Assembly (NCBI GenBank): GCA_035296445.1
Contig: DATHAZ010000149.1
Location: 48,331 to 72,330, forward strand
Direction of reading: 5' to 3'
Origin: Pyrinomonadaceae bacterium
GTDB taxonomy: Bacteria; Acidobacteriota; Blastocatellia; Pyrinomonadales; Pyrinomonadaceae
Length of the DNA stretch: 24,000 nucleotides
The translations under genes and the position numbers were made by a program. The notes beneath the pieces are model-generated. The model searched no databases. It was given only the letters and a program-made list of their open reading frames with translations, and was not told where the DNA came from. Of the stretch, positions 2,704 through 21,936 are shown piece by piece (positions within the stretch are counted from its first letter, which is position 1; every line of letters begins with the position of its first letter).

Positions 2704-4068
2704 ATGATGCTCAGTGTTAATAGATTACTCGGCCGCCGCTCTCCGGCGGACGCCGACGCGGAAAGTTTATTTGAGAACGCTGACGGCGCGAAAAAATCAC
2801 CGTCCTCGATCTACCTCCGACTCATCGAGGATGAATCGCCCGGCCGGGAGGTGGGTAAGCGCTCGTTCGGCGTCCGGCTCGGCGCTGTGTTCGCGACATT
2901 GATGGTGGGGTTGTCGGCCGGAGCGTCAAATGTATTTGCCGAAGATGATGACGACCTGGCTGCTTCTCCTTCAAAAGCCGGCTCTCACGACGACGATGAC
3001 GACGTAGACAACACGGCGACGGGAACCGGAACGGGCGTTAACACGGCGACGGCCACCGCCACTGATCCGGGCACGAATGACGCGACCGGAACGAACACCG
3101 GCACGGGAGTGGCGACGGCAACCGGCACGGGGACGCTCAACGGTCGCACCGCCACCGGGACGGCAACCGGCACGGGAGGGGTGACGGCGACCAACACGGC
3201 GACCGCCACTAATCTTAAAACCGGCGACCGCACCGCCACCCAGACGGGAACGGGAACGGGCGTCAACACGGCGACAGCCACCGCGACCGCTACGGCCGCC
3301 GGTAATGGCCGCAGGGGCAACAAGGGCAAGCAGGCCGGCAAGAACAAGGGTGGTGATGATAATGACGGCACCGCCACCGGGACGGCAACCGCCACCGGCG
3401 TCAACACCGCGACCAACACCGGCACGGCCACCGACCCCCGCACACAGGACGCGACGGCGACCCGCACCGGCACAGCCACGGGTAACAACACGCTGACAGC
3501 CACCGCGACCAGAACGGCTACGGGCACCAAACTCACAGCCACGGACGGCACGGCCACCAACACGGCGACGGCGACCGGCGTCAATACCGCCACGAACACC
3601 GCCACCGCCACAGACCCGTTGACGCAGGATCGCACCGCGACAGCGACGGCGACCGGAACCGGAGGGGCGACCGGCACGGCCACAAACACGGGCACCGTGA
3701 CCGGCACCCGGACGGCGACCGGCAGGACGCGAACTGCCACGGCGACGGGTACGGGCGGGGTCACGGCCACCAACACGGCGACGGCCACTAACCCTCGGAC
3801 TGTTGACGCTACGGCGACCAACACGGCCACCGCGACGGGCGCACAGACTGCGACTAACACCGCGACCGCGACCGGCACGGCAAACGGCGGAACTGCAACC
3901 GGCACTGCCACTGCGACCGGCGACACTACGGCCACGAACACGGCGACCGCCACCAACCCGGCAACGCTGGATACGACCGGAACGGGAACGGGCACCAAAG
4001 ACACAAAAACGGGAACACGCACCAAGGACACAAAGACGGGAACCGCGACCGGGACGACCGCCGCATAG
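2704..4068 (+). CDS. Secreted or membrane-anchored Thr/Ala/Gly-rich repeat protein (alternating T-X-T-X)
   Basis: AGGGGG RBS at 2692-2697, 6 nt before the ATG. N-terminal hydrophobic signal/anchor (LGAVFATLMVGLSAGASNVFA) followed by acidic runs (EDDDD, HDDDDDVD). About 360 aa of TATNTATAT[DN]PxTxDxTAT-type modules follow. A strong hairpin terminator lies downstream. Confidence 0.7.
   Translation: MMLSVNRLLGRRSPADADAESLFENADGAKKSPSSIYLRLIEDESPGREVGKRSFGVRLGAVFATLMVGLSAGASNVFAEDDDDLAASPSKAGSHDDDDDVDNTATGTGTGVNTATATATDPGTNDATGTNTGTGVATATGTGTLNGRTATGTATGTGGVTATNTATATNLKTGDRTATQTGTGTGVNTATATATATAAGNGRRGNKGKQAGKNKGGDDNDGTATGTATATGVNTATNTGTATDPRTQDATATRTGTATGNNTLTATATRTATGTKLTATDGTATNTATATGVNTATNTATATDPLTQDRTATATATGTGGATGTATNTGTVTGTRTATGRTRTATATGTGGVTATNTATATNPRTVDATATNTATATGAQTATNTATATGTANGGTATGTATATGDTTATNTATATNPATLDTTGTGTGTKDTKTGTRTKDTKTGTATGTTAA
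3004..4062 (+). repeat. Imperfect in-frame tandem codon repeats (ACS-GCS/GGS-ACS) inside the Thr-rich gene
   Basis: Recurring DNA strings such as accaacacggcgacggcc / accgccaccg / ggcgtcaacaccgcgacc. At protein level GVNTATxTxTATDPxTxD occurs about 4 times and GGVTATNTATATN about 2 times. Confidence 0.75.
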
Positions 4069-4462: not shown

Positions 4463-5230
4463 ATGAGTCAACACACATCTCCGCGATGCCTGGTCCTGGG
4501 CGGCGCGGGTTACGTCGGGTCGGCGGTATGCAGGTTGTTATATGAGTGCGGAGCACGCCTCGCGTTTACTTATCACACGGGTGGCGAGACGGCGAGAGTT
4601 TTGGCCGAAGAGTTGAAGGGCAGCTTTCCGCTCCACGCCGATCTGGCGAGTTACGCGGAGACGAGGCGCGTGGTTCGTGAGGCCGGCGGGCTGCTGGGCG
4701 GTCTCGATGCGTTGATCCAGTGTGCGGGCACGGCGGGCGATCCCACTCTCTATACAACCCGCCACGCGGACGATCACGGTAAGTTCCTGGCTATCACGGA
4801 GGCCGAGTGGGACGCGATGTTCGATGTCACCGTTCGCAGCACCTTCGCGGCGTGTCAGGAGGCGACGCTCTTGATGAGTCGGAATCAGAAGAACGGCGGC
4901 AGTATCGTCATCGTCGGCTCGATTGACGGCATCAAGCCTTTGCCCGCGCCCGTTCACTACGCAGCCGGCAAAGGTGCGCTGCGCTCCCTCACGGAAGCCT
5001 TAGCCAAAGAGTTGGGGCGAGACAACATCCGCGTCAATCTGGTCGCCCCCGGAATCCTCGAAGGCGGCATCGCGCGCCACCTGGAAGCGCGGCTGTTGCA
5101 GGATTATTTAGAGCACTGCGCTTTAAAGCGAGCGGGGAAGAGCGACGAAGTGGCCGAAGTTATCGTCCGGCTCGCACTGGATAACACTTACGTGACGGGT
5201 CAATCAATCGTGCTCGACGGGGGTTTGTAG
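4463..5230 (+). CDS. Short-chain dehydrogenase/reductase (FabG-like), SDR no. 1
   Basis: Rossmann motif LVLGGAGYVGSAV, catalytic YAAGKGAL, NIRVNLVAPG, C-terminal GQSIVLDGGL. GAGG RBS 5 nt upstream of the ATG. Confidence 0.85.
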   Translation: MSQHTSPRCLVLGGAGYVGSAVCRLLYECGARLAFTYHTGGETARVLAEELKGSFPLHADLASYAETRRVVREAGGLLGGLDALIQCAGTAGDPTLYTTRHADDHGKFLAITEAEWDAMFDVTVRSTFAACQEATLLMSRNQKNGGSIVIVGSIDGIKPLPAPVHYAAGKGALRSLTEALAKELGRDNIRVNLVAPGILEGGIARHLEARLLQDYLEHCALKRAGKSDEVAEVIVRLALDNTYVTGQSIVLDGGL

Positions 5231-5314
5231 CGAGCGCGGCGACCCGCCCGCGAGCCACGCCGAGCCTGAGACGGCACGCGCTCCGGGGCGGCGGGTTCGG
5301 ATAATTGATCGCCG

Positions 5315-5343
5315 TTGACTTGCCCTGTGCCCTTCCTTATAGT
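5315..5343 (+). promoter_or_regulatory. Near-consensus sigma70-type promoter upstream of the radical-SAM operon
   Basis: TTGACT (5315-5320), exactly 17-nt spacer, TATAGT (5338-5343). It lies about 125 nt upstream of the ATG at 5467. Confidence 0.45.
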
Positions 5344-5466
5344 GTAGCCCGAATTGACGGCGCAGACTTCTCGGGGCGTAGTTCATTCAGCCCGTCTAAC
5401 AAGGGTTTAAGAACCGCCTGCCAGCCACCTCCAGACAAGTTCTTTCGCGCGCAGGAGAAACCCCGG

Positions 5467-6987
5467 ATGCCTACTAACCCCCGCGGAACCCGCCCTTATA
5501 CTTTTTACAAGATGACGCAGAGCACCTGCCCCGAATGCCTGAAAGTGGTGCAGGCGCAGGTCGTCTTCGAGGACAACAAAGTATTCTTCCTTAAGCACTG
5601 CCGCGAACATGGACACAGCAAAGCTCTGGTGAGCGAAGACGCGGAGTACTATCAGAACGCGTTCTCGTTCAGCCGGCCGGGCAGCGTCCCTTTGCAGTTC
5701 TCGACCGAGGTTAAAGAGGGGTGTCCGACCGATTGCGGTCTGTGCCCGTCTCATCAACAGCACACCTGTCTGCCGATCATCGAGGTCACGGACTACTGTA
5801 ATCTTGAGTGTCCGGTCTGCATCGTCAACAACCAGTATTCCAACCACATGTCGCTCGGCGATTTTCAAGAGATCATTGATCTGCTTGTGCGCCACGAGGG
5901 AGTGCTCGACACCGTCACACTGAGCGGCGGCGAGCCGACTTCGCACCCGCAGTTCTGGGAGTTGATTGACATCGCCACGCGCCCCGAGGTCGGGCGCGTC
6001 TCCGTCGTCACGAACGGCATACGCATCGCCCGCTCGAAAGAGTTCTGCGCGCGCCTCAAAGAAAAAAACGTCTACGTGATCCTCCAGTTTGACGGCTTCA
6101 CCGACGATGTGCAGAAAGCGATCCGCGGCGTTGACCTGATGGAGACGAAACACAGGGCGCTCGAACACCTCGGCGAATTCAACATCTCGACGCAGATCGC
6201 TTTCGTCCCGGCGCGCGGGGTGAACGAGCATCAGTTGGGAGACGCCGTGCGGCTGCTGCTCGAACGCGACCACATTCTGTCGCTCCTGATCCAGCCGTTC
6301 GCTGCCACGGGGCACGGCGGCGGCGTCTTTCCGCACGACCCTTTGGATCGCCTGACGACGCCGGGCGTCATCCGTGCCATTGACGAACAGACCGCCGGCC
6401 TCGTCGCGCGCGAAGACTTCATCCCGCTTCCCTGCTCGCACCCGCTCTGCGTTTCGCTGACCTACCTGCTCAAGCTCGACGACGGGAGCTATCTCCCTTT
6501 CCCGCGCTTCGTGGACATGCGCCGCCACCTCGACCTGTTCCAGCAGACGGCGACCCTCGAAGCGAACGAGCAGACGGAGGATGCGCTGCAAGGTGTGATC
6601 GGCGACTTGTGGAGCACCGCCGGTGAGATACCCGACAGCCAGAAGGTCATCAAAGCGCTCAGGCGCGCCCTGCTGGAGATGTTCCCCAACAAAAAAGTTG
6701 ACCGCCGTGAACTCATCCGCATCACGGAAAGGCAGGCCAAGACGATCTTCATCCACCACTACATGGACAGACACGACTTCGACATCGAGCGTCTGATGAA
6801 GTGCTGTCACCACTACCCGCAAGTTGACGGGCGGATCATGCCCGCGTGCGGATTCAACATGTTCCATCGCGGCGCGGCGAAAGGAGCCGGGACGCAGACT
6901 CCGCCGTGGGGGAAAGGGCCGTTCATCAAAGATGATTCGCCCGAACTCAAACTCTACGCAATCGGCCGCGAGCGCAACGTCACGTGA
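5467..6987 (+). CDS. Radical SAM enzyme, COG1964 / tetraether-lipid-synthase (Tes, GDGT-MAS)-like architecture, paralog 1
   Basis: AGGAG RBS at 5453-5457, 9 nt before the ATG; the listed start at 5305 is an upstream extension. N-terminal knuckle CPEC...x19...CREHG, second Cys motif GCPTDCGLCPSH, radical-SAM CNLECPVC (CX3CX2C), SAM-binding LSGGEPTSHP, C-terminal PCSHPLC and KCC...PAC motifs. Clear paralog of 11941-13431. Confidence 0.8.
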   Translation: MPTNPRGTRPYTFYKMTQSTCPECLKVVQAQVVFEDNKVFFLKHCREHGHSKALVSEDAEYYQNAFSFSRPGSVPLQFSTEVKEGCPTDCGLCPSHQQHTCLPIIEVTDYCNLECPVCIVNNQYSNHMSLGDFQEIIDLLVRHEGVLDTVTLSGGEPTSHPQFWELIDIATRPEVGRVSVVTNGIRIARSKEFCARLKEKNVYVILQFDGFTDDVQKAIRGVDLMETKHRALEHLGEFNISTQIAFVPARGVNEHQLGDAVRLLLERDHILSLLIQPFAATGHGGGVFPHDPLDRLTTPGVIRAIDEQTAGLVAREDFIPLPCSHPLCVSLTYLLKLDDGSYLPFPRFVDMRRHLDLFQQTATLEANEQTEDALQGVIGDLWSTAGEIPDSQKVIKALRRALLEMFPNKKVDRRELIRITERQAKTIFIHHYMDRHDFDIERLMKCCHHYPQVDGRIMPACGFNMFHRGAAKGAGTQTPPWGKGPFIKDDSPELKLYAIGRERNVT

Positions 6988-7041
6988 GCGTGCGCCCCGC
7001 AACACCGTCACCGTAGACGCTCTAAGACACCGTCACTCTGT

Positions 7042-8421
7042 ATGAGCAGCCAGCCCGCCACGCCGCATCTCTCGATCTCAAAATACGCGCGCCACGTCAA
7101 CCCCCAGTTCGTCAAACTGCTCGGCGTTTTCGGTTACGGGCGCGTGTTCGAGCGAGCGAGCGACGTGTGGGTGTGGGATCAACAGGGGCGTCTGTATCTG
7201 GACTTCCTCGCCGGTTTCGGGTCGGTCAACGTCGGCCATAATCACCCTCGTCTCGTGGCGCGCCTCCGAGATTTTCTCGCCGCCGAAAGAATGAACTTCT
7301 GCCACGTCGCGCCCTGCGCCGAGGCGGCGGAGTTGGCGGAGGCTTTAGCCGGGGCGGCGGGGACGCCTCTGCGGGTCTCTCTTTTTTCCAACAGCGGAGC
7401 GGAAGCCGTCGAAGCCGGGATGAAGCTGGCGCGAGCGGCGACCGGGCGCAAAGGATTCGTCTATTGCCAACACGGCTTCCACGGCACGACCCTCGGCACG
7501 CTCTCCGTCATGGGCGGCGAGCGTCTGCGCCAGCCCTTCGAGCCTTTGTTAAATGACTGCGACGCCATCCCGTTCGGAGATTTAGACGCGCTCAATCGTG
7601 CGCTGGCGCGCGGGCGTGTGGCGGGCTTCATCGTCGAACCCGTCCAGGGCGAAGGCGGTGTGGTCACGCCTCCGCAAGGTTACTTGAAGGAGGCGCAGGC
7701 ATTATGCCGCCGGCACGGGACGCTCCTCATCCTCGACGAAGTGCAGACGGGGCTGGGGAGAACCGGGACGATGTTCGCCTACGAGGCGGAAGGCTTCACC
7801 CCGGATGTGCTGGTCTTAGCGAAGTCGTTGAGCGGGGGCGTCGCGCCCATCGGCGCGACGCTGATTTCCGAGGATACGTTCGACCGCGCTTACGGCTCAC
7901 TCGCGCGGTTTGATCTGCACGGTTCGACGTTCGGCGGCAATGCGTTCTCGTGCGTCGCCGCGCTGGAGACCCTGCGGATCATCGCCGACGAGAATTTAGT
8001 CGCGGCTGCTGCTGCGCGCGGCGCACAGTTGTTGGCGGGTCTGCGCGAAAAACTTGCAGGCCACCCGCTCGTGCGCGACATACGCGGGCGCGGTTTGTTA
8101 GTGGGCATCGAACTCGGCCCGACCGACTCGGGCTGGATCAACAAAGTCGCGCCGTCGCTGGTGAATCTCGTGTCGAAGAATGTGTTCGGGCAATGGGCGG
8201 CGCTCAAGTTGCTGGAGCGCGGGTTGATCTGCCAACCGGCCTCGCAGGCTTGGAACATCCTGCGGCTGGAGCCGCCATTGACGGTGCGGGAGGCGGAGGT
8301 GGACGCGGCCGTCGAGATGGTGGCCGGCGCTCTGGGGGAGTATCGAGGCATGTCGCCGCTGTTAAAGGATGTCGCCGAGCGTCTGGGCGGACAGTGGCGG
8401 AAAGGTTGGGCGTTTGAATGA
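7042..8421 (+). CDS. Class-III (PLP-dependent) aminotransferase
   Basis: FLAGFGSVNVGHNHP, SNSGAEAVEAGMKLAR, LILDEVQTGLGRTGTMFAYE, and PLP-lysine context VLAKSLSGG. These are typical of the acetylornithine/GABA/ornithine-oxoacid aminotransferase family. Confidence 0.85.
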   Translation: MSSQPATPHLSISKYARHVNPQFVKLLGVFGYGRVFERASDVWVWDQQGRLYLDFLAGFGSVNVGHNHPRLVARLRDFLAAERMNFCHVAPCAEAAELAEALAGAAGTPLRVSLFSNSGAEAVEAGMKLARAATGRKGFVYCQHGFHGTTLGTLSVMGGERLRQPFEPLLNDCDAIPFGDLDALNRALARGRVAGFIVEPVQGEGGVVTPPQGYLKEAQALCRRHGTLLILDEVQTGLGRTGTMFAYEAEGFTPDVLVLAKSLSGGVAPIGATLISEDTFDRAYGSLARFDLHGSTFGGNAFSCVAALETLRIIADENLVAAAAARGAQLLAGLREKLAGHPLVRDIRGRGLLVGIELGPTDSGWINKVAPSLVNLVSKNVFGQWAALKLLERGLICQPASQAWNILRLEPPLTVREAEVDAAVEMVAGALGEYRGMSPLLKDVAERLGGQWRKGWAFE

Positions 8422-9452
8422 ATCTCTCGGAGTTGAGGCGCGACCTCCGGTTCACCACCAATCTGTTGCTGCGTCGCCCGTTCGACGTGCTGGTGCAGGT
8501 CACGAACCGCTGCAACATGAAGTGCAGCTTTTGTGACTTCTGGCCGCACGGCGCGACGGCGCGCGAGGAGTTGCAGGTTGCCGAATACCGGCGCGTGGCC
8601 TCGGAACTGGCGTCGCTCGGCTGCTTCATCGTATCCGTGGAAGGCGGCGAGCCGTTCGTGCGTCCAGACCTCGTGGAGATCGTCGGGGCATTCGCCGAGC
8701 GTGGACACCTGCCGGTCGTTTATACCAACGGCTGGTACGCGGACGCCGACAAGGCGCGCGCTCTGTTCGCCGCCGGACTGACGCAGGTCGGCATCTCCAT
8801 AGACTACCCGGAGGCGCGGCGTCACGACGCCAAACGCGGACTGGACGGAGCGTTCGCGCGCGCATGGGAGGCCGTCGAGGCTTTCCGCGAGGCCGCGCCA
8901 CACGGCGGAAGACAAGTACACGTGATGACCGTTCTGATGAAAGATAACCAGCGCGACATCGAAGAGTTGTTGCGTTTGAGCGCGCGCCGCCGCGTCGGGC
9001 ACTACGTCACCCTGCTCTCGACGGCCGGCTTCCGGCGTGGCCGCAGTAGTAGTAGCGCCGACCGTGCGCCGGAGGGGGCATTCGCAGACGAGTTGCTCGC
9101 GCTGCGACGCCGCTACAAACATTTTCGCGCGCCGAGCGATTACCTGCGGCTGGCCGCCTCCTACGCCGACGGCGGCGCGATGCCGACCTGTCGCGCCGGA
9201 GTACAGACCTTCAACATAGATCATCTGGGCAACGTCTCGGCCTGCATCGAGCGCATAGACAAGCCCGTGGGAAACGTCCGCGAAGAACATCTCGTCAGCC
9301 TGCACGCGAAGCTGCAAGGCGATGAAGAGCGTGCGGAAGTCGGAAGCTGCCAGAAGTGCTGTACGATCTGCCGGGGGATGGGGCAGACGTTCGGCGCGGG
9401 CGGGTCTCTGCGCGGCTGGTGGGAGTTGGCGACGCGTATGAGGTCACATTGA
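8418..9452 (+). CDS. Radical SAM enzyme with C-terminal SPASM/twitch-like Cys cluster
   Basis: VTNRCNMKCSFCDFW (CX3CX2C), VEGGEPF glycine motif. The C-terminus has CRAGVQTFNIDHLGNVSAC (GX4C) and CQKCCTICRG. The start overlaps the aminotransferase stop (ATGA at 8418-8421). Confidence 0.8.
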   Translation: MNLSELRRDLRFTTNLLLRRPFDVLVQVTNRCNMKCSFCDFWPHGATAREELQVAEYRRVASELASLGCFIVSVEGGEPFVRPDLVEIVGAFAERGHLPVVYTNGWYADADKARALFAAGLTQVGISIDYPEARRHDAKRGLDGAFARAWEAVEAFREAAPHGGRQVHVMTVLMKDNQRDIEELLRLSARRRVGHYVTLLSTAGFRRGRSSSSADRAPEGAFADELLALRRRYKHFRAPSDYLRLAASYADGGAMPTCRAGVQTFNIDHLGNVSACIERIDKPVGNVREEHLVSLHAKLQGDEERAEVGSCQKCCTICRGMGQTFGAGGSLRGWWELATRMRSH

Positions 9453-9463
9453 GCGGGGAGACG

Positions 9464-10216
9464 ATGTTGCTGCTGCGGCCACTGTTAAAAGACAAACGCG
9501 TGCTCGTGACGGGCGGGTCGCGCGGTCTGGGACGCGCCTTCTGTGAACGCTTCGCCGCGGAGGGCGCGCACGTCGCCTTCAACTACACGAGCGACGAGAG
9601 CGGCGCGCGCGAAACCCTCGGCCGCGTCGAGACGAGCGGGCAGAGGGCGCTCGCCTTCAGGGCGTCGGTGCTCGACTACGCCGCCCTCGAACAGATGGTC
9701 AGAGAGATCGAGAGCGCATGGGGCGGCATAGACGTTCTGGTTAACAACGCCGGAATAAGTCAGCCACTGCCGTTGGCGTTGATGGAGGAGGAGGACTGGG
9801 ACGCGGTGATGGACACGAACGCGAAGGGGCAGTTTCTCGCTGCGCGCGCGGTGTTGCGGGGCATGATTCGGCGTAAGGGCGGATGTATGCTCAATATCGG
9901 CTCACTGGCCGGGGTGCGCCTGATCGAAGCGCCGATTCATTACTGCGCCAGTAAGGCCGCGGTCAAGGGCTTCACGGAGGCGCTGTCTAAGGAGGTGGCG
10001 CGCTATAATATTCGCGTCAACTGTCTCGCGCCGGGGTTGCTCGATGACGGCGTCTCACAGAATCTACCCGAGTACCGGGTGGAGGAGTTTCTCAAACACG
10101 TCTCGCTGCACCGCAAAGGCACTCTGGAGGAGGTCGCGAGGTTCGCCGCCTTCCTCATCTCCGACAGGAACAGCTACATGAACGGCGCGACGGTCGTGAT
10201 AGATGGCGGCCTGTGA
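9464..10216 (+). CDS. Short-chain dehydrogenase/reductase (FabG-like), SDR no. 2
   Basis: GGGGAG RBS at 9455-9460 followed by the ATG at 9464. VLVTGGSRGLGRAF, NNAG, YCASKAAVKG, NIRVNCLAPG. The listed start at 9356 would overlap the previous gene by ~100 nt and adds non-SDR sequence. Confidence 0.85.
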   Translation: MLLLRPLLKDKRVLVTGGSRGLGRAFCERFAAEGAHVAFNYTSDESGARETLGRVETSGQRALAFRASVLDYAALEQMVREIESAWGGIDVLVNNAGISQPLPLALMEEEDWDAVMDTNAKGQFLAARAVLRGMIRRKGGCMLNIGSLAGVRLIEAPIHYCASKAAVKGFTEALSKEVARYNIRVNCLAPGLLDDGVSQNLPEYRVEEFLKHVSLHRKGTLEEVARFAAFLISDRNSYMNGATVVIDGGL

Positions 10217-10251
10217 GAAGCGTCCGTAATTGTGAAGGGGCTGTGAGGTAA

Positions 10252-11385
10252 ATGGTCGCAACCGCGTACCAGTCAAATCTCTTCGGGTGGATCGTCAGCC
10301 GACGTTATGACACGGCGTTCATCTTCGGCGGGGCGGCGGCGAGTTTGTGCGCGCCGTTGCTGGTCTGGTGGTACCCCGCCCTTTTATCTCCGCTGTTCTG
10401 GCTCTGGCTGTTCCTCTTCGACGGCACCCACAGTTGGGCTACTTACAGCCGCACCTACGCCGACCCGCAGTTCCGCAGAGAGAACCGTCGGCTCTTGTTC
10501 GGCAGTCTTGTCTTGTTCATCCCGGCGGCGGCGGCCATCTATTTATGGCAGGCCAGCGGCTCGCTCGCGCCCGTTTATCTGTTTCTGTTCATCGCGCAGT
10601 GGTGGAGTTATCACCACATCGTCAGGCAGCACTACGGGTTCGCTTCGATCTACGACCGCAAGGCGCGCGCCGACAGTACTTCTCACCAAGTCACCAAGTG
10701 GACTCTCTATCTTGGATTGTGGCTTCCTTACCTTTATTTCCTCCTGACGCACCCGCTGAATCGCCGGATCATGAGCGGCTCGCTCGACGGCGCGGCAGAC
10801 CTCCCGCCGGTCAATTACGGGTGGGTTGACACGCTGCTCGGATACGGCGCGCCAGCCCTCTCCGTCGCCCTCCTGCTCGGCCTCGTCGCGTACCACGTCC
10901 GGCGGTGGGGCGGTCTTCGGCAGAGATTTGAACTCAGCCCGGCGCTCGTCTTCACAGCGGCGTGCGTGCTGTTGTATTCCGTGATCTTTTACGTCATCGC
11001 GCCGCTTGAGCCGCTGCTGCCCGGCGCGCGCACGCCCGTGCAGAGCTTCATGCTCATGCAGGTCATGATCACGCTGTTTCACAACATCCAGTATCACGCC
11101 GTCGTGTGGCATTACAACCGTAACCGTCCGAGCCGCGCGCGTCTCAACCGTAACTTCTTCATCTACGCTCTGGCCGCAATGATCTTCTCTATCGGCTACG
11201 TCGCCGCCGCATGGTACACTACCGAATATCCGTCATGGCAGGGAACGATCCCGGAAAACATACTCGTCCCGGCGGCGTTCTGCGCGTGGTGGGGGTTGTC
11301 GCTGCACCATTACTACCTCGATCAGAAGATATGGCGCGTCAGCAAAACGCAGGAACTGCAACGCCATTTCGGCGTCACGGCCTGA
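10252..11385 (+). CDS. Polytopic integral membrane protein with four His clusters (family not recognised; possible membrane metallo-enzyme)
   Basis: About 8-9 hydrophobic segments. His clusters FDGTHSW, WWSYHHIVRQHYGF, LFHNIQYHAVVWHYN and LSLHHYYLDQKIWR lie at predicted helix ends. Confidence 0.6.
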   Translation: MVATAYQSNLFGWIVSRRYDTAFIFGGAAASLCAPLLVWWYPALLSPLFWLWLFLFDGTHSWATYSRTYADPQFRRENRRLLFGSLVLFIPAAAAIYLWQASGSLAPVYLFLFIAQWWSYHHIVRQHYGFASIYDRKARADSTSHQVTKWTLYLGLWLPYLYFLLTHPLNRRIMSGSLDGAADLPPVNYGWVDTLLGYGAPALSVALLLGLVAYHVRRWGGLRQRFELSPALVFTAACVLLYSVIFYVIAPLEPLLPGARTPVQSFMLMQVMITLFHNIQYHAVVWHYNRNRPSRARLNRNFFIYALAAMIFSIGYVAAAWYTTEYPSWQGTIPENILVPAAFCAWWGLSLHHYYLDQKIWRVSKTQELQRHFGVTA

Positions 11386-11975
11386 CGCCGTCCCTGCGCG
11401 CTCTGGGCGTGGTGCCCCTGGCTTTCTTCGTTCTTCATGCCCGTTACCACATCGGGCAGGGCACGGGCGGACATCTCCTGTGGGTGTGTACGGTCTCGAA
11501 CCTGCTGCTGGCGGCCGGCCTTTTTCTGGACTTGCCGATGTTGATCCGCGTCGCCGTCATGTGGCTCGTCACGGGACTGCCCCTCTGGGCGTGGGACATG
11601 TTTGAGCAGGGTATCGCGCCGGTCTCAAGTTTCCTCACACACTTCGGCGGTCTGGCGGTCGGGCTTATCGGTCTTTCCAGAGTGCGTGCCGCGCGCGGCC
11701 TCTGGGTCTGTGCTTTCATCTGGTATCTCACCTTGCAGCTCGCGGCGCGCCTGCTCACGCGCCCGGAGTTGAACGTCAACCTCGCACACGACATGCACGG
11801 CGGTTGGCGCGATTTATTCAACTCCTACTGGAGGTTCTCGGTCTTCATGAGTCTGGTAGTAGCCGTAGCCCTCTGGCTGACCGGGCTGGTAACGCTGAAA
11901 CTCTTTCCCCCGTCGGTGAATCATCCGAAGCGAGGTGCTTATGACGGCGACGACATCAGCCCGCAAACTGCATGA
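11331..11975 (+). CDS. Small polytopic membrane protein (unknown function)
   Basis: Five to six hydrophobic helices (VVPLAFFVLHA, LLWVCTVSNLLLAAGLFL, VAVMWLVTGLPLWAW, FGGLAVGLIGL, LWVCAFIWYLTLQLAA, FSVFMSLVVAVALWLTGLV). The start is uncertain: ATG 11331 overlaps the upstream gene by 55 nt, and GTG 11409/11412 are alternatives. The 3' end overlaps the next gene by ~35 nt. Confidence 0.5.
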   Translation: MARQQNAGTATPFRRHGLTPSLRALGVVPLAFFVLHARYHIGQGTGGHLLWVCTVSNLLLAAGLFLDLPMLIRVAVMWLVTGLPLWAWDMFEQGIAPVSSFLTHFGGLAVGLIGLSRVRAARGLWVCAFIWYLTLQLAARLLTRPELNVNLAHDMHGGWRDLFNSYWRFSVFMSLVVAVALWLTGLVTLKLFPPSVNHPKRGAYDGDDISPQTA

Positions 11976-13431
11976 CACGACGAGCCTCTGCGCCACCTGC
12001 AAGCGCGGCATCGAGGCGTCGTTGTGGGAGCGGGACGGCCGGATTTCCATGCGCAAGGCATGCCCCGAACACGGCGCGAGCGAGGTCTTGATCTCTTCGG
12101 ACGCCGCCTGGTATCACGAAACGCTGAACTATGCGGCGCGGACGATCCAGCCCCCGTTCGTCAAGAATGCGGTGGACAGGGGCTGTCCCTTCGACTGCGG
12201 CGCATGCGAGGCACACGAGCAGAAGTCATACCTCCCGGTCATCCCCATCACGAGCGCGTGCAACCTTGATTGTCCGGTCTGCTATACGATCAACAAGAAT
12301 GAGGATGCGTTCCACATCTCGCTCGAAGAGTTCGCGGCTATCCTCGATGTCGTGCGCCGCAACGATCCGGGGCTGAAGATAATCAACCTGACGGGCGGCG
12401 AGCCGACACTTCACCCCCAATTGACGAAGATCGTAGAGATGTGTCACGCAGCCGGAATCCACCGCGTCACCATCAGCACGCACGGATTGACCTTCATCAA
12501 CAACGAAGCGTTGCTCGACGAACTGGCCGTCCTCGGCGCGCGCATCGTCCTCTCTTTCAACTCTTTCGACGAGGCGGTCAACTATCGCATGGTCGGCGCG
12601 AGGGCGGCGAAGGGTAAGTTGAAAGTCCTCGAAAAGCTGGCGCGGCACAACGTAGACACGACGCTCATCCCGGTGCTGGCCGTCGGCTACAACGACCGGG
12701 AGATCGGCGATCTCGTGAACCTCGCGCTCTCTCAAGACTTCATCCGCAGTCTGGAAATTCACACGATGACCTTCACGGGTCAGAGCGGCACAGACTTCGA
12801 CCCCGCAGCGCGCCTGACCACGCCCGACGTGCTGCGCCGGATCGAAGAGCAGACCGGCGGCCGCATCCGCATGGGCGACTTCGTGCCCTCGCCGTGCGCC
12901 CACCCGCTCTGTTATCAAACCTGCTACCTGCTCCAGACGCCTGCGAGCGGCTTCATCCCCTTCACACGGTTCATGTCTAAGGAGACGATCCGCCAACTGC
13001 TGACGGACAACCTTTACATGGAGCCCGGCCCGCTCATGGAGTCCGCATTGCAGGACGTAGCCATGCAGTTGTGGGCGTCGGAGTTGGACGACGAGACGGG
13101 GGAAGCCGTCCTGACGACGCTCAAGAACTTAATCAAGCGCCTCTTCCCGGCCGTGCCTCTGCCTTACCACGAGCGGCAGATAATCGCCGAGCGCGCCGCC
13201 AAGACGATCTACATACACTCGCACATGGATGAGGAGAATTTCGACACCGACCGCATCCGTCAATGCTGCGTGGGCGTGCCCTCGGCCGACGGCGGCAACG
13301 TGCCGACGTGCGCCTACAACATCCTATACCGCGAGCGCGACTCGCGATTTTCGGCCAGAGACAGCGCGCCGCTCTCCACCTACGCCGGCGGGCGCAAAGA
13401 GCTGGTGCAGATCAGGCGTCCGGGCAGGTGA
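11941..13431 (+). CDS. Radical SAM enzyme, COG1964 / Tes(GDGT-MAS)-like architecture, paralog 2
   Basis: CATC...x19...CPEHG knuckle, GCPFDCGACEAH, CNLDCPVC, LTGGEPTLHP, PCAHPLC, AKTIYIHSHMDEENFD, QCC...PTC. It is collinear with 5467-6987 in every motif. The start is ATG 11941 or GTG 11935. Confidence 0.8.
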   Translation: MTATTSARKLHDTTSLCATCKRGIEASLWERDGRISMRKACPEHGASEVLISSDAAWYHETLNYAARTIQPPFVKNAVDRGCPFDCGACEAHEQKSYLPVIPITSACNLDCPVCYTINKNEDAFHISLEEFAAILDVVRRNDPGLKIINLTGGEPTLHPQLTKIVEMCHAAGIHRVTISTHGLTFINNEALLDELAVLGARIVLSFNSFDEAVNYRMVGARAAKGKLKVLEKLARHNVDTTLIPVLAVGYNDREIGDLVNLALSQDFIRSLEIHTMTFTGQSGTDFDPAARLTTPDVLRRIEEQTGGRIRMGDFVPSPCAHPLCYQTCYLLQTPASGFIPFTRFMSKETIRQLLTDNLYMEPGPLMESALQDVAMQLWASELDDETGEAVLTTLKNLIKRLFPAVPLPYHERQIIAERAAKTIYIHSHMDEENFDTDRIRQCCVGVPSADGGNVPTCAYNILYRERDSRFSARDSAPLSTYAGGRKELVQIRRPGR

Positions 13432-13433
13432 CG

Positions 13434-13910
13434 ATGCGATTCTTTCTGGTTGACCGCGTGGATGAATTGAAGCCGGGGGAGATGATCCGCGGCGTCAAGA
13501 ACGTGACGCTCAGCGAAGACTTTTTGCAGGATCACTTCCCTTCCCATCCCCTCTTTCCCGGCACATTAATGATCGAGGCGTTGGCGCAGTTGGGCGGATG
13601 CCTCGTCGAGGCCACCTTCAATACCAGCGACGACAACGTCAGGCGCGCGGTGCTCGCGCAGGTTGACCGCGCCAGATTTCACGAGGCCGTGAGGCCGGGC
13701 GATCAACTGAAGATAGTGTGCCGCCTTGTCTCGATGCTCGAAGGCGCGGCGCAGGTTAAGGGCGAAGCCAGCGTGGGCGAACGCGAGGTCGCCCGCGCGA
13801 CGCTGCTCTTCGCGCTGCGCGCCGTGGGGTCGGAACGGATACACCGGCAGCGGAGGGAAATTTACGAGATATGGACGCGCCACTTGAATCTGGACTTCAC
13901 GCTCCGCTAG
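13434..13910 (+). CDS. FabZ/FabA-like 3-hydroxyacyl-ACP dehydratase (hot-dog fold)
   Basis: MRFFLVDRV..., then the signature HFPSHPLFPGTLMIEALAQLGG. The ATG lies 2 nt after the stop of the upstream radical-SAM gene. Confidence 0.8.
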   Translation: MRFFLVDRVDELKPGEMIRGVKNVTLSEDFLQDHFPSHPLFPGTLMIEALAQLGGCLVEATFNTSDDNVRRAVLAQVDRARFHEAVRPGDQLKIVCRLVSMLEGAAQVKGEASVGEREVARATLLFALRAVGSERIHRQRREIYEIWTRHLNLDFTLR

Positions 13911-14812
13911 TTGTCACCGGAGTCGGCTCTCTCGTGCTCGCGCCCGCGCGGGCGGGCGAAGAAGACCCGTCCGTTGACGCCGCGCGCGAAGTCGCGCCGT
14001 GGCTCAAGTCGAAGAAGATGCGCAAGTTCATGGGCAAACAGGATCAACTCGCGGTGGCCGCCGCCGGCCGCGCCGCGAAAGACGCCGCCCTCGACGAGCG
14101 AACCTTGCGTGAACGCACCGGGCTTTACCTGTGCGTCGGTCATATCCCCTTCGAGCGCGCACAGATTGAAGCGATAGCCCGCGGCTCGATTCAAGCGGAC
14201 GAGTTTTGCATGGAGCGGTTTTCCACCACGGCCTTCGAGCGCGTCAACCCTCTGCTCACGTTTCGCTGTCTGCCGAACATGCCCGCCTTCCACGTCTCGC
14301 TCAACCTCGGGATGCGCGGGCCATACTTCGTCACCTACCCTTGCGCGGGACAGTTCTACCTCGCGCTTGAGTGCGCGACGGCCGCACTGGAAAGCGGCGA
14401 GGTTGATGTCGCGCTCGTGGGAGCGGTCGCCGACCAGAACAATTTTCTCGTCGCATACCATTTCCGCCGAACGTCGGATTCGCGAAAACTGACCGCTTGG
14501 GAAGGCATAGACGCGGGCGCGTTCCTGTGTCTGGAGACACGGGACGGGGCGAGGCGACGCAATGCAGAGGTCAAGGCCGAACTGCTCTCGTCGGAGGTTA
14601 GCTACGCCGCGCCGGACTCGTGGGGCGAGTCGCGGCCATTCGCGGAGTCGGTCACTTTCGCGGGCGTGAAAACGGTGGCCGCGAAGCCTACGGCGGCCTC
14701 GCTTCCCGTGAGCCTGAGCCATGCCGCAGGCGGCGCGGGCAAGGGCGAGTTCGTCCATCAACTGTCCACGGCGGGCGGCGTCGAGGCGACGAGCCGTTGG
14801 AGGGTCGTGTGA
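13871..14812 (+). CDS. Truncated beta-ketoacyl synthase-like protein (chain-length-factor-like KS partner)
   Basis: KS N-terminal-like LVVTGVGS, RKFMGKQDQLAV (compare RKMDxF in FabF), LPNMPAFHVSLNLGMRGPYF, and the YPCAGQ segment at the active-site position. It is only 313 aa and lacks a recognisable HGTGT/HGTST His motif. It overlaps the FabZ-like gene by 40 nt and ends in a GTGA overlap with the KS. Confidence 0.65.
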   Translation: MDAPLESGLHAPLVVTGVGSLVLAPARAGEEDPSVDAAREVAPWLKSKKMRKFMGKQDQLAVAAAGRAAKDAALDERTLRERTGLYLCVGHIPFERAQIEAIARGSIQADEFCMERFSTTAFERVNPLLTFRCLPNMPAFHVSLNLGMRGPYFVTYPCAGQFYLALECATAALESGEVDVALVGAVADQNNFLVAYHFRRTSDSRKLTAWEGIDAGAFLCLETRDGARRRNAEVKAELLSSEVSYAAPDSWGESRPFAESVTFAGVKTVAAKPTAASLPVSLSHAAGGAGKGEFVHQLSTAGGVEATSRWRVV

Positions 14813-16053
14813 GTCGCCGTAGACGCGTCGTTATCACAGGCGTCGGCATTGTCTCCCCGCTCGGCCACGAGTTGACCGAGTTTCGCCGCAACCTTCTCTC
14901 CGGCCTATCGGCGGCCGCGCCGATCACCGTGTTCGACCCCGCGCGCCTTCCGACCAGAATCGCGGCGCAGGTGGATGCGTCGTCTCTGCCGACTCAAACC
15001 AGGGATCGCAAAATAGCTTTCGGCCTCGCCGCGACGCGTGCGGCCATCGCCGACGCGGACGGCGGCGATGCCCTGCCCGTGGCGGAATACTACGCCGGAA
15101 CGGGCGGCGGGCTGAGTCTCGGCATCGGACTCGAACTTTTCTCGATGCCCGACATGGTGAAGTTTCTTGAGCGCGAAGAAATTCCGGCGGGCGTCCATGC
15201 GCAGACGTTTTTGCAGACGCCTTCGGACGTGTGCGCCCACTTGATCTGCCGCGAGCACGACTTCTTGCGCGCTCCGCCACTCGTCCACGTCTCCGCATGT
15301 GCGGCGGCGACCGACGCCATTGGCACAGCCTTTCGCATGATCCGCGACGGCAGGCGCAGGTGGATGCTGGCCGGAGGCGCGGATTCCATGATCAACCCGA
15401 TGGGCGTCGGAGGATTTTGCGCCATCGAAGCGACCACGCGCCGCAACCACGAGCCGCGACGCGCATCGCGCCCGTTCGACCGTGACCGCGACGGGTTTCT
15501 ACTGGGAGAAGGCGCGGGGCTGCTCGTGCTCGAAACGCTCGACGATGCACAGGCCAGGGGCGCGCGCATCTACGGCGAGGTGTCGGGCTATGGGAATTCG
15601 TTCGATGCCTACGGCATCAGCGAGCCGCACCCGGAAGGCGAAGGCGCGCTCCTCGCAATGCAACGCGCTCTCGCGGATGCCGGATTGCATCCCGAAGACA
15701 TCTCTTACATCAATGCCCATGGGACATCCACGCCGAAGAACGACGTGGTTGAGACGCGCGCGATTCGCCGCCTGCTCGGTCGCCACGCGGAGCGCGTGCC
15801 CGTCAGTTCGACCAAGTCCATGATCGGCCATCTCATTTCCGCCGCCGGGGCGGTCGAACTGGCCGCCGCCATCCTCTGCGCTGAGACCGGCTGGGTGCAT
15901 CCGACGATCAACCTCGAACGCCCCGACCCCGCCTGTGATCTGGATTACGTCGCGGAGGGCGCGCGCCGGGTGAAGGTGGAAACGATTCTCAAGAACTCAT
16001 TCGCATTCGGGGGGCAGAACGCATCTCTGGTGATACGGATGGCGGGATGTTGA
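14809..16053 (+). CDS. Beta-ketoacyl-ACP synthase II-like (FabF-type KS)
   Basis: GTG start at 14809 overlapping the upstream stop (GTGA). RVVITGVGIVSPLG, active-site HVSACAAATDAIG, RPFDRDRDGFLLGEGAGLLVLE, NAHGTSTPKND, SSTKSMIGHLISAAG, NSFAFGGQNASLV. Confidence 0.9.
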   Translation: MSRRRRVVITGVGIVSPLGHELTEFRRNLLSGLSAAAPITVFDPARLPTRIAAQVDASSLPTQTRDRKIAFGLAATRAAIADADGGDALPVAEYYAGTGGGLSLGIGLELFSMPDMVKFLEREEIPAGVHAQTFLQTPSDVCAHLICREHDFLRAPPLVHVSACAAATDAIGTAFRMIRDGRRRWMLAGGADSMINPMGVGGFCAIEATTRRNHEPRRASRPFDRDRDGFLLGEGAGLLVLETLDDAQARGARIYGEVSGYGNSFDAYGISEPHPEGEGALLAMQRALADAGLHPEDISYINAHGTSTPKNDVVETRAIRRLLGRHAERVPVSSTKSMIGHLISAAGAVELAAAILCAETGWVHPTINLERPDPACDLDYVAEGARRVKVETILKNSFAFGGQNASLVIRMAGC

Positions 16054-16793
16054 GCGGGAAAACCATCGTCGTCACGGGCGCGGCGGGCGGTATCGGGCGC
16101 GCGATTGCGCTGGCGTGCGCGAGAGAAGGCGCGAGCGTGGGCGTCAACTATTTGACGAACTGCGCCGGGGCGGAAAAACTCGTTGACGAATTGAACCGTG
16201 CCTCCGAAGGCCGCGCCTTCGCCTTGCGGTTCGACGTGCGGAAACCCGACTCGATCACCGCCGCGTGTCTCCCGCTGCTCGAAGAGGTCAAGCGCGTAGA
16301 CGGGTGGGTCAATAACGCCGGCGTTAACTTACCGGGCTTATTGATGTCCCAAACCGAAGAGATGATCGAAGAACAGATCGCGGTCAACATCAAAGGCGCG
16401 ATCTACTGTAGCCGTTTCATCCTGCCCTACATGGTGCGGCAGCGGCGCGGCGCTCTGATCAACATCGGGTCGGTGGTCAGCATGCGACCCTCGCCGGGGC
16501 AGGCTGTCTACGCAGCCACGAAAGGCGCGCTCGCCGCGTTGACACGCGCTCTGGCCGCGGAGTACGGACGGAAGGGCATACGCGTCAACTGCGTGGAGCC
16601 CGGCCCCGTCGAAACGAAGATGTTCGGGGGCACGCGGCAACTGGCGGGCGATGAGGTAAAAAATCGAATCCCGTTACGGAAATTTGGCGCGCCCGGAGAG
16701 GTGGCCGAGTTGGTGGCCTTCCTGCTCTCGGAACGCGCCTCCTTCATCACAGGCGGCGTCTTCGCGGCCGACGGCGGTTACTCCGTCGGGTGA
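16047..16793 (+). CDS. 3-oxoacyl-ACP reductase-like SDR (FabG-type), SDR no. 3
   Basis: The ATG overlaps the KS stop (ATGTTGA). IVVTGAAGGIGRAI, NNAG, YAATKGALAALTRALA, IRVNCVEPGPV. Confidence 0.9.
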   Translation: MLSGKTIVVTGAAGGIGRAIALACAREGASVGVNYLTNCAGAEKLVDELNRASEGRAFALRFDVRKPDSITAACLPLLEEVKRVDGWVNNAGVNLPGLLMSQTEEMIEEQIAVNIKGAIYCSRFILPYMVRQRRGALINIGSVVSMRPSPGQAVYAATKGALAALTRALAAEYGRKGIRVNCVEPGPVETKMFGGTRQLAGDEVKNRIPLRKFGAPGEVAELVAFLLSERASFITGGVFAADGGYSVG

Positions 16794-16836
16794 CTGTGGG
16801 AGTTCAGAGACGACGGGTAGAAAGAGACCACAGGCA

Positions 16837-17256
16837 ATGATTGAAAGAGATGAAATCTTCCGCGTCGTGCGCGGCTGCGTCGGCAAAAGCCTTGAGATTG
16901 ACGAAGAGGATGTGAAACTCGATTCACGCCTGATCAGCGAACTGGGGGCGGACTCCCTCGACTTTCTCGACATCGTCTTCAGGCTCGAAGAGAGTTTTGG
17001 GCTTAAGCTGCGCAACGCCGAACTGGATGTGCTGACCCGTGCGGAATTCACCGGCGCAACGAACGAGGACGGTTACATCCCGGCCGAAACCGTGGCGCAA
17101 TTTCGTCAATGGCTGCCCGCGCTCAGACTCGCGGAGCGCGACGACCGCATCAGCCCGCGTGACATCTACTCTTACATCACGACGGAGACGCTGGTGATCC
17201 TGATTGAACGGAAACTCGCCGAATCGGGCGGCGTTCAGAGTTCAACCGACCAGTAA
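16837..17256 (+). CDS. Acyl carrier protein with ~60-aa C-terminal extension
   Basis: Phosphopantetheine attachment motif LGADSLDFLDIVFRLEE. The protein is 139 aa from ATG 16837, whereas canonical ACPs are about 80 aa. Confidence 0.8.
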   Translation: MIERDEIFRVVRGCVGKSLEIDEEDVKLDSRLISELGADSLDFLDIVFRLEESFGLKLRNAELDVLTRAEFTGATNEDGYIPAETVAQFRQWLPALRLAERDDRISPRDIYSYITTETLVILIERKLAESGGVQSSTDQ

Positions 17257-19744: not shown

Positions 19745-20131
19745 CTATTTCTGCCTCTTGAAATACAGAGCGTTAGTCGCCCCCGGCCTCACGTCGAGTT
19801 GCCCCTGCCCGACCATCTCCCAGCCCTCTGCGCCGAGTCTGGTGATGGCTTTCGCCATGGAGGCTCCGTGCCCGTCGGTCGCGGAGGATTGCACGTCCAC
19901 TACCTGAGCGCCTGTGTCGCGGAAATAGATGATCCAGTAGCCTTCACGGCTCGCGTTAACGTAAGCCGCCTTAGACAGCGCGCAGTACTCCCACTGCTGG
20001 CGACTGCTCGGCTCATCGGCCTGCCGCGCCAGAACAGGGGTCGCGCTCTGGAGTTTGCTTGAGATTGCCCCGCCCAGTGCCGAACCGACAAGAATCAATG
20101 GAATAATCAGCAGGTGCGGCTTCTTGCTCAT
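19745..20131 (-). CDS. Secreted/anchored DUF4177-like protein
   Basis: N-terminal hydrophobic leader LLIIPLILVGSALGGAI. QWEYC...LGAEGWEMV...ALYFKR matches the DUF4177 pattern. Confidence 0.5.
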   Translation of the reverse strand: MSKKPHLLIIPLILVGSALGGAISSKLQSATPVLARQADEPSSRQQWEYCALSKAAYVNASREGYWIIYFRDTGAQVVDVQSSATDGHGASMAKAITRLGAEGWEMVGQGQLDVRPGATNALYFKRQK

Positions 20132-20560
20132 ACAAAACTCCTCTCCAATTCGGACACACGTGCCCGGAAGTCTGTCTATCTCTTAACGCGAAATTCCCGG
20201 CGGGAATGGATCAGATGATTCCATGGATCACGCGGCTCTTTGGCTCGACACCGCAGCCTTAATTACGGCATTAACATAGTTGACTCACCCGGCGCATATA
20301 TGACAAGTCGAACTTACTAGGGGGCGATGACCTCCGAGTGTCGGGTAAGGCTATTTGTCAGACCAGACCTCTCCGGCTTGTCCTGCGCGGCGTTAAAGGG
20401 CAGAGCGCTAACAGTGTGGCATGCTAAGCTATGAGCGGTTTTTGACACGCATTCCAGCGCGTTATGCCGAACTTGTCGGCTTTGCCTCTCCATCACATGG
20501 TCAGGCCGAATCATTCGGCACAATATGCGTTAGATGCTTACCTCAAGGAGAATGGTAGAT

Positions 20561-20785
20561 ATGTCTCAACCTCACCTTTTACCTTTTAGTGTATGGTGTC
20601 CGCTGTGCAAGAAGCATGTGAAACTTTTACGAGTCGCGCACGCCGCCAAATTTATTGACGTACATAGTCGAACCGTTTACCGGTATATCGACGAGGGATT
20701 AATTCACGCAGTAAAAGTTGTAGGCAAGACGTATCGCGTTTGTGGAGATTGTCTCTTACGGCAGAGAGACCCAAATAACGAGTGA
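20561..20785 (+). CDS. Excisionase-family helix-turn-helix DNA-binding protein flanked by CxxC pairs
   Basis: AAGGAG at 20545-20550. HTH core AAKFIDVHSRTVYRYIDEGLIHAVKVVGKTYRV (AlpA/Xis/MerR-like HTH_17 pattern) bracketed by CPLC and CGDC. ATG 20534 is an alternative start. Confidence 0.6.
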   Translation: MSQPHLLPFSVWCPLCKKHVKLLRVAHAAKFIDVHSRTVYRYIDEGLIHAVKVVGKTYRVCGDCLLRQRDPNNE

Positions 20786-20887
20786 CAAATGTGACATTCT
20801 GTATTGAAGGAATCGCTGAACCGCTTTACAGTGTGCCACCATCCGCCTCAATTTGTAACGCTCAACGCCATAAGGAGGAAAGTTCAA

Positions 20888-21735: not shown

Positions 21736-21809
21736 ATTAGGTTCGGAAGGAGTCTGAATATAAATCACTGTGCAGCACGGTAGATTTAATAGACTTCAGG
21801 AATCAGAAG

Positions 21810-21865: not shown

Positions 21866-21936
21866 GAGAAGCCCAATGTCGTGGGAATCGCCCAAACTCT
21901 TTGGATGAACCGAGTCGCCTTTATTTACGACGCCGC

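Follow-up and report, generated by a model that had tools for sequence, protein, structure and literature searches.

In the 24,000-nucleotide stretch of a Pyrinomonadaceae bacterium genome analyzed here (GCA_035296445.1, contig DATHAZ010000149.1, positions 48,331 to 72,330 of the forward strand; hereafter the window, in whose coordinates positions are given), one gene encodes a 377-aa membrane protein that founds a family without a Pfam or NCBIfam model, a name or a structural relative. Conservation of histidines in this family is far beyond chance because five of them (H60, H122, H127, H277 and H353) are present in 116 of 116 aligned sequences at a mean column identity of 34%. Judging from the conserved residues and the predicted topology, this protein most likely represents a new type of scaffold for a membrane metalloenzyme, probably a redox enzyme, in which His and carboxylates ligate the metal on the cytoplasmic side. 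The full reading that we favor, an integral-membrane metalloenzyme with a new ten-helix scaffold that would catalyze a redox step on a lipid-like substrate, is assigned a probability of about 0.45.

10252..11385, + strand: target gene, 377-aa membrane protein with ten transmembrane (TM) helices (evidence: open reading frame (ORF), ribosome-binding site, AlphaFold2 model, topology)

The ORF starts with ATG, and a GAGG Shine-Dalgarno-like element is located approximately 5 nt upstream. AlphaFold2 modeling based on the 116-sequence alignment yielded ten long helices (predicted local distance difference test score (pLDDT) 93.2, predicted template modeling score 0.92), in agreement with the polytopic membrane protein proposed in a preliminary description of this sequence. 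The same description counted ten His in four short segments. All four were located (T59-H60-S-W, H121-H122-IVRQ-H127, H277-NIQY-H282-AVVW-H287 and H352-H353-YYLD357), but they contain nine His (1+3+3+2), not ten, and there are 13 in the whole protein.

No Pfam model matched the protein at E ≤ 10, NCBIfam produced a single noise-level match (E 1.2), and PDB sequences gave no match at E ≤ 10, either with the single sequence or with the 116-sequence profile; a Foldseek search of the PDB found nothing either, despite the pLDDT of 93 of the model. Thus, in Pfam, NCBIfam, PDB sequences and Foldseek against the PDB, the protein is indeed unrecognized, as initially described. Assignment to a transporter or structural family, which the description considered adverse to an enzyme, was not obtained because no family of any kind was assigned. 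Weak Pfam matches among the 116 members (NCE101 in 10, DUF3040 in 6, EBP in 3) are noise, and PF00487 FA_desaturase, PF04116 FA_hydroxylase and PF10520 Lipid_desat are absent from these weak matches. In the source databases, all relatives are named 'hypothetical protein', save for one that carries a DUF805 label, which is likely spurious, and no account of the family or of its type of gene cluster was found in full-text literature searches.

The family is large. A word-indexed search retrieved 206 relatives. When 1.84 billion cluster representatives were searched exhaustively with a profile, 3,467 clusters at 50% identity were obtained with E ≤ 1e-3, of which 340 had E ≤ 1e-30, and at least 566 loci were detected in about 185,000 genomes, each representing one species. 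The closest relatives, with 77-88% identity to the target, come from Pyrinomonadaceae metagenome-assembled genomes (MAGs) and soil metagenomes. Among the hosts are Acidobacteriota (Pyrinomonadaceae, Blastocatellia, Thermoanaerobaculia, Holophagae and Bryobacteraceae), Myxococcota, many of them cultured (Myxococcus, Corallococcus, Pyxidicoccus, Archangium), and Bdellovibrionota, Planctomycetota, Bacteroidota, Marinimicrobia and Rokubacteria. The members are characterized by a length of about 340-400 aa, an N-in/C-in topology and a signature of four motifs, (D/E)GxH in TM2, HxxxQHYG in TM4, HNxQY in TM8 and HxxLDxxxW in TM10, which are conserved over 116-361 relatives and are all present in the target.

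10420..10431, + strand: TM2 motif (D/E)57-G-x-H60, an ExxH-like pair at the cytoplasmic end of TM2 (conservation, co-evolution)
10612..10635, + strand: TM4 motif H121-H122-x3-Q126-H127-Y128 (H122 and Q126 invariant, H127 near-invariant, H121 variable)
11080..11112, + strand: TM8 motif H277-N278-x-Q280-Y281-H282...H287 (H277 and Y281 invariant, H282 and H287 not)
11305..11322, + strand: TM10 motif H352-H353-Y-Y-L-D357, H-x3-D (codons read directly; H353 invariant, D357 near-invariant)

Conservation was assessed in the 116-sequence alignment and in a wider set of 361 sequences with about 30-35% identity. In the former, the invariant columns are D20, W50, W52, H60, R67, H122, Q126, H127, G129, Y134, H277, Q280, Y281, H353, L356, D357 and W361, and position 57 is acidic (Asp or Glu) in 116/116. 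In the wider set, H60, H122, Q126, H277, Y281, H353, D20 and W361 are invariant wherever covered (342-344 sequences for the His), and H127 (328/344), D357 (341/343), Q280 (335/344) and D/E57 (326/342) are nearly so. Conserved positions in the cytoplasmic loops are R67, T68, D71, Y134 and K137. Thus, H60, H122, H277 and H353 of the originally listed histidines are invariant and H127 is almost invariant, but the others are variable: H121 is found in 10/116 sequences, H287 in 41/116, H352 in 66/116 and, in the wider set, H282 in 221/344. As far as can be judged from the alignments, the functional set consists of four to five His and two carboxylates, plus Gln and Asn, all of them putative ligands; the 8-9 His in boxes with the logic of di-iron enzymes, as invoked in the preliminary description, are not borne out. 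Its remark on non-canonical His spacing was accurate, with H-x4-H occurring twice and no conserved HxxHH box.

Because H282 varies among the relatives, being replaced by Leu in 65 of them, it is not an essential ligand. Nevertheless, this position covaries strongly with Y305 (z = 9.2 in the co-evolution analysis described below; nt 11095-11097 and 11164-11166). In all ten alignment-covered members that are linked to the gene cluster described below and lie outside the Pyrinomonadaceae clade, His is missing at position 282 (Leu in nine, Val in L025), and position 305 is Ala in the five Myxococcota among them and Tyr or Phe in the others; the clade of the window itself retains H282/Y305. The two residues may be a specificity-determining pair.

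Across the 116 sequences, the mean number of Lys and Arg is 4.6, 3.3, 3.8, 4.7 and 4.5 in loops 2-3, 4-5, 6-7, 8-9 and the C-terminal tail, respectively, vs. 0.2, 0.6, 1.8, 0.8 and 0.7 in loops 1-2, 3-4, 5-6, 7-8 and 9-10. Under the positive-inside rule, this alternation implies ten TM helices with both termini in the cytoplasm. TM2, TM4, TM8 and TM10, which run from outside to inside, carry conserved polar residues in their cytoplasmic halves, and all other conserved polar residues are in cytoplasmic loops, so that every conserved His lies in the cytoplasmic half, that is, on one membrane face, as would be anticipated from the initial proposal. The extension of the conserved polar residues into cytoplasmic loops, as opposed to a string of such residues along a trans-membrane path, favors an enzyme-like over a transporter-like arrangement.

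To examine co-evolution, mean-field direct coupling analysis (DCA) in the zero-sum gauge was applied to 316 non-identical sequences (effective number about 250). As a sanity check, the top short-range pairs were helically periodic (i+4, then i+3, then i+7). Long-range couplings were detected between TM2 and TM8 (A63-V285, z = 9.8; F56-L275, 6.3; T59-H282, 6.1; S66-N289, 5.7), between TM2 and TM10 (T68-I360, 7.9; Y69-H352, 6.4; S61-S350, 5.7; D57-Y354, 4.7), between TM4 and TM10 (A115-W347, 8.0; I123-S350, 5.1) and between TM2 and TM4 (D57-I123, 4.5). These couplings suggest that TM2, TM4, TM8 and TM10 pack in register at the level of the conserved residues.

A further line of evidence comes from a single relative, P0222 (677 aa), in which a complete family domain with all motifs retained is followed by the Pfam domains FAD_binding_6 and NAD_binding_1. 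The C-terminal part matches NADH-cytochrome b5 reductases (PDB 2eix, E = 1.1e-30), and the protein is encoded by a single uninterrupted ORF (8001-10034 of L092, a 26-kb contig). The neighboring genes are of eukaryotic type (BAR/Vps5, CAF-1 WD40, histone H4-binding), and P0222 appears to be the only eukaryotic member of the family. NADH-cytochrome b5 reductase is the electron-input enzyme of eukaryotic membrane desaturases and hydroxylases. The fusion to a reductase of this type, albeit a single observation, is thus indicative of a redox role of the membrane domain. No reductase is adjacent to the closest bacterial relatives of P0222 in their gene contexts. Four other candidate fusions (P0249, P0155, P0159 and P0264) were rejected since they contain no recognizable extra domains; the tail of P0249 is apparently out-of-frame.

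Under the mechanism that we propose, TM2, TM4, TM8 and TM10 would pack together and present ligand-type residues at the cytoplasmic membrane-water interface, namely D/E57 and H60 (TM2), H122, Q126 and H127 (TM4), H277, N278 and Q280 (TM8), and H353 and D357 (TM10), flanked by the invariant D20, R67, D71 and Y134. The site would bind one or two transition-metal ions, most likely non-heme iron, and would receive its electrons on the cytoplasmic side, through an NAD(P)H-dependent flavoprotein or a ferredoxin chain. The reaction itself would be a hydroxylation, a desaturation or a related oxidation of a membrane-embedded lipid-like substrate. In the sub-lineage to which the target belongs, this substrate would be an intermediate or a product of the adjacent pathway, in which chain building by ketosynthase (KS), chain-length factor (CLF), dehydratase, ketoreductase and acyl carrier protein (ACP), C-C coupling by Tes-like radical S-adenosylmethionine (SAM) enzymes and PigE-like transamination can be envisaged. 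Given the fusion, the location of the predicted site and the cluster context, a lipid redox reaction appears to be the most economical explanation.

The target lies inside a co-directional gene cluster that spans positions 4463-17256 of the window and in which a short-chain dehydrogenase/reductase (SDR) gene is located immediately upstream of it. The downstream part is a block resembling a type II fatty acid synthase (FAS)/polyketide synthase (PKS), at 13434..17256.

4463..5230, + strand: SDR 1 (Pfam, NCBIfam)
5467..6987, + strand: Tes-like radical SAM 1 with a rubredoxin-like or Zn-ribbon N-terminus (Pfam Zn_ribbon_HMPTM + Radical_SAM; PDB 7TOL)
7042..8421, + strand: class-III aminotransferase, closest to the PigE aminotransferase domain (Pfam Aminotran_3; NCBIfam PigE)
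8418..9452, + strand: SPASM/twitch-type radical SAM (Pfam; PDB PqqE, SkfB; NCBIfam NirJ/AhbD-like below cut-offs)
9464..10216, + strand: SDR 2, FabG/FlxB-like ketoreductase, directly upstream of the target (Pfam, NCBIfam)
11331..11975, + strand: memb2, uncharacterized small membrane protein, 214 aa (gene call, co-location)
11941..13431, + strand: Tes-like radical SAM 2 (Pfam; PDB 7TOL)
13434-13910, + strand: ApeI/FabZ-like dehydratase (type II FAS/PKS-like block)
13934-14812, + strand: CLF-like KS (same block)
14809-16053, + strand: KS (same block)
16047-16793, + strand: FabG (same block)
16837-17256, + strand: ACP (same block)

The inventory of the cluster thus includes two Tes homologues, a SPASM radical SAM enzyme, a PigE-like aminotransferase, three SDRs, a dehydratase, KS/CLF and an ACP; among the genes at 4463-17256, neither an enoyl reductase nor a release enzyme is evident from Pfam and NCBIfam. 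Both Tes-like proteins match 7TOL, the archaeal Tes (glycerol dialkyl glycerol tetraether (GDGT)-MAS), with E = 2.7e-69 for the product of 5467..6987 and E = 3.3e-59 for that of 11941..13431, and both fall short of the 450-bit equivalog cut-off of the NCBIfam Tes model, the former with 268.7 bits. The aminotransferase scores 466 bits with the NCBIfam PigE model over the aminotransferase part of the latter. Bacterial Tes homologues are known bioinformatically but are still uncharacterized (PMC8941075; PMC13459092). Compared with the archaeal Tes, the setting with KS/CLF/ACP and an aminotransferase is without an archaeal counterpart. Identity with the anammox 'ladderane' Cluster I was considered and rejected since that cluster includes a B12-radical SAM enzyme and a phytoene-desaturase homologue.

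The start of memb2 overlaps the 3' end of the target gene by 55 nt, which may reflect translational coupling. The memb2 family comprises small membrane proteins of about 190 aa without a Pfam or NCBIfam match, in which C53, H104, Q136, R140 and N148-V-N150 (an ELNVN motif) are invariant; the sole fold resemblance of the AlphaFold2 model (pLDDT 85), to the acyltransferase TMEM164 (9lw1_A, query-normalized TM-score (TMq) 0.49, E = 2.4), is not significant.

To analyze linkage, the proteins of the window were compared by tblastn with 91 loci, 80 of which are species-genome loci (L012-L091). The same set of genes, with Tes-like radical SAM, SDR and aminotransferase genes, was found beside a family member in Acidobacteriota (Pyrinomonadaceae L012, another Acidobacteria MAG L014, Thermoanaerobaculia L031), Rokubacteria (L028), Planctomycetota (L025), Myxococcota (Polyangiaceae L032, Archangium/Archangiaceae L047 and L074, Myxococcaceae L059, Haliangium L073) and two metagenome contigs (L010, L011), with memb2 co-located in L011, L012, L014, L025, L028, L047 and L059. 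The gene order is shuffled between the linked loci. That the linkage has persisted in four phyla although the genes were rearranged points to a functional connection. However, cluster linkage was seen at only about 11 of the 80 species-genome loci; in the remaining approximately 69, the gene stands alone, with only lineage-specific synteny. In a neighbor-joining tree, the cluster-linked members form three groups, apart from the large stand-alone clades of Myxococcaceae and Blastocatellia. Taken together, the prevalence of stand-alone members and the grouping in the tree indicate a general function that was recruited by one lineage into the cluster pathway. Thus, the lipid cluster invoked in the preliminary description is real, in the sense of a lipid-building cluster, but the association is confined to a sub-lineage. 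The Myxococcaceae MAG SMAG_U10721 has two paralogues, of which that at L057 belongs to the stand-alone clade and that at L059 is located beside a Tes-like radical SAM gene and memb2, which suggests that the family diverged into sub-functions.

Some versions of the cluster differ from that in the window. Two copies of the class-III aminotransferase are present in L014 (15057-19097), L028 (15326-19215) and L073 (11147-17193), and the L073 version has a third Tes-like gene. The product of the cluster may be di-amino or more heavily cross-linked.

The comparison with known systems shows partial likeness in several directions. With the membrane di-iron His-box enzymes (desaturases including SCD1, AlkB/XylM, FA2H/Scs7 and PEDS1/CarF), the target shares His on TM helices at the cytoplasmic interface and a lipid-metabolism context, and one family member is fused to an electron donor of the NADH-cytochrome b5 reductase type, which serves eukaryotic desaturases. 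The first desaturase box of SCD1 is HRLWSH, and its H-x4-H spacing is common to one target motif. In contrast, these enzymes have 4-6 TM helices and 8-9 conserved His vs. ten TM helices and 4-5 His in the target, and the two conserved carboxylates of the target (D/E57, D357) are residues that the di-iron enzymes do not use as primary ligands. No fold match to SCD1, AlkB or Scs7 structures was found by Foldseek against the PDB. Membership in the desaturase/hydroxylase/AlkB/PEDS1 group was therefore rejected: there is no profile or fold match, and the His boxes are lacking.

The predicted site is reminiscent of a dinuclear center of the four-helix-bundle type or of a 4-His mononuclear Fe(II) center. 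Hemerythrin coordinates its metal with 5 His + Glu + Asp (motif H...HxxxE...HxxxH...HxxxxD), and type-3 copper proteins employ 6 His in a 1+2+2+1 pattern; as in these proteins, one or two ligands per helix would be placed on four helices. However, both are soluble and share no sequence similarity with the target, so that the likeness is limited to the ligand count and the helix logic. The Brp/Blh beta-carotene 15,15'-dioxygenase is a membrane protein in which four conserved His bind Fe(II). The target is likewise polytopic, with four invariant His on TM helices, a possible mononuclear non-heme iron and a presumably hydrophobic substrate, but the size and the number of helices differ, and the family has no Pfam or NCBIfam match to Brp/Blh. 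Three other groups were considered and rejected: the trans-membrane di-heme cytochrome b/ferric-reductase type, because the invariant His are all in the cytoplasmic leaflet and no profile or fold match was found; the CREST/PAQR/alkaline-ceramidase zinc hydrolases (7-TM, 3His+Asp), because the target has ten TM helices and no Pfam, PDB-profile or Foldseek match; and metal transporters (NiCoT, ZIP, CDF), because there is no recurrent profile match, no repeat and the polar residues are one-sided.

Several observations weigh against a lipid-oxidizing metalloenzyme. Only 4-5 His are conserved and, to our knowledge, every known membrane di-iron enzyme has more. The three O2-labile radical SAM enzymes of the cluster are awkward for obligate O2 chemistry, and the presence of some members in MAGs labeled Brocadiaceae, Thermoanaerobaculia and Clostridia sits uneasily with obligate O2 dependence. 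P0222 is a singleton on a eukaryote-like contig, the only reductase fusion among the 150 best representatives, and, beside the bacterial members examined, there is no recurrent gene for a ferredoxin, a cytochrome b5 or a reductase. The DCA, given the shallow alignment, is only supportive of one four-helix core. We considered a non-redox membrane enzyme as an unlikely alternative explanation. The His/Asp/Gln cluster would then act as a catalytic base, a nucleophile or a Zn site in the transfer, hydrolysis or cyclization of an acyl or head group, for instance, the attachment of the ACP-bound product to a membrane lipid, by analogy with the ELO-type HxxHH elongases, the PlsC H-x4-D acyltransferases or the PAQR/alkaline-ceramidase 3His+Asp zinc hydrolases. 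Such a role would fit the occurrence of members in apparently anaerobic lineages and a cluster without an obvious release or lipid-attachment enzyme. The invariant residues lie at the cytoplasmic interface, where acyl-ACP or acyl-CoA meets lipid head groups, and R67, K137 and R362, which are conserved, could provide a binding site for a phosphate or CoA group. However, the NADH-cytochrome b5 reductase fusion would have no role in such an enzyme, no MBOAT, PlsC, ELO, PAP2, TLC or CREST profile matched any of the 116 members, and the transferase could instead be memb2, with its invariant Cys and His and weakly TMEM164-like fold.

The same fusion to an NADH-dependent flavoreductase would be compatible with an electron-transfer or cofactor-binding (e.g. 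heme b) subunit that relays reductant to partners such as the Tes-like radical SAM enzymes and is no catalyst itself. Indeed, the linked radical SAM enzymes need reductant, and two heme sites with bis-His ligation could be built from the four invariant His, each of which is on a helix of its own. We regard this relay as improbable: the His are all in one leaflet, unlike those of trans-membrane di-heme proteins, the invariant carboxylates and amides (D/E57, D357, Q126, Q280, N278) are typical of non-heme sites, most members stand alone with no radical SAM neighbor, and no cytochrome b fold was matched by Foldseek. Very improbable, in our assessment, is a transporter of metal ions or small molecules with a His/Asp binding site. 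Ten TM helices with conserved internal His and Asp might suggest one, and the Acanthopleuribacter gene precedes that for a TonB-dependent receptor. Nevertheless, transporter families do not recur among the matches of the 116 members (the only hit, Cation_efflux, is at noise level, with E = 0.01 in 1/116), and Foldseek detected none. No internal structural repeat is apparent either, the N-terminal and C-terminal halves showing no duplication by hhalign (probability <6%). The one-sided conserved polar residues leave no trans-membrane polar pathway, and the cytochrome b5 reductase fusion would be unexpected.

Elsewhere in the window, a 454-aa ORF without a family match (2704-4068, + strand), directly downstream of a Ser/Thr kinase gene (1482-2627), encodes a hydrophobic anchor at the N-terminus and, beyond it, about 350 aa of quasi-repeats rich in Thr, Ala and Gly (TATGTG, NTATATN). 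This ORF is the reason why positions 3001-4000 have an AT skew as extreme as 0.66 and a GC content of 70%. At the other end, positions 20001-24000 have a GC content of 0.46-0.53 vs. 0.60-0.65 in the remainder of the window; Pfam models match neither the ORF at 20804-21535 nor that at 22640-23890, and the boundary is not marked by a tRNA gene. This segment may be foreign DNA.

The interpretation in the preliminary description is thus partly supported. Its proposal of a novel membrane metal enzyme was not contradicted by any of the three checks named there and has gained the reductase fusion and the co-evolution signal as support, whereas the desaturase-like picture with 8-10 His is overstated. 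Metal oxygenases and desaturases that are embedded in membranes are small in number and difficult to recognize, and they are central to lipid diversity. The target would be, if the interpretation is correct, an independent solution to the placement of a metal center at the membrane interface, in a large family that includes the cultivable Myxococcus, Corallococcus and Archangium. It is the main polytopic membrane component of a cross-phylum cluster in which bacterial Tes homologues are combined with a PigE-like aminotransferase and a type II FAS/PKS module. A more far-reaching scenario, which we consider somewhat unlikely as a whole, is that the family constitutes a new fold class of membrane metalloenzymes, with 4-5 His and two carboxylates on a four-helix core within a ten-helix bundle, that arose separately from the desaturase/AlkB superfamily and, in one sub-lineage, is indispensable to the bacterial Tes-like radical SAM enzymes with which Acidobacteriota, Myxococcota, Planctomycetota and Rokubacteria would make an amino-functionalized, C-C-cross-linked lipid. 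The question of what bacterial Tes homologues do is linked to that of where the branched GDGT (brGDGT) palaeoclimate proxies come from (PMC8941075). Should this scenario be true, the chemistry of a new fold class in partnership with Tes could bear on the origin of bacterial membrane-spanning lipids.

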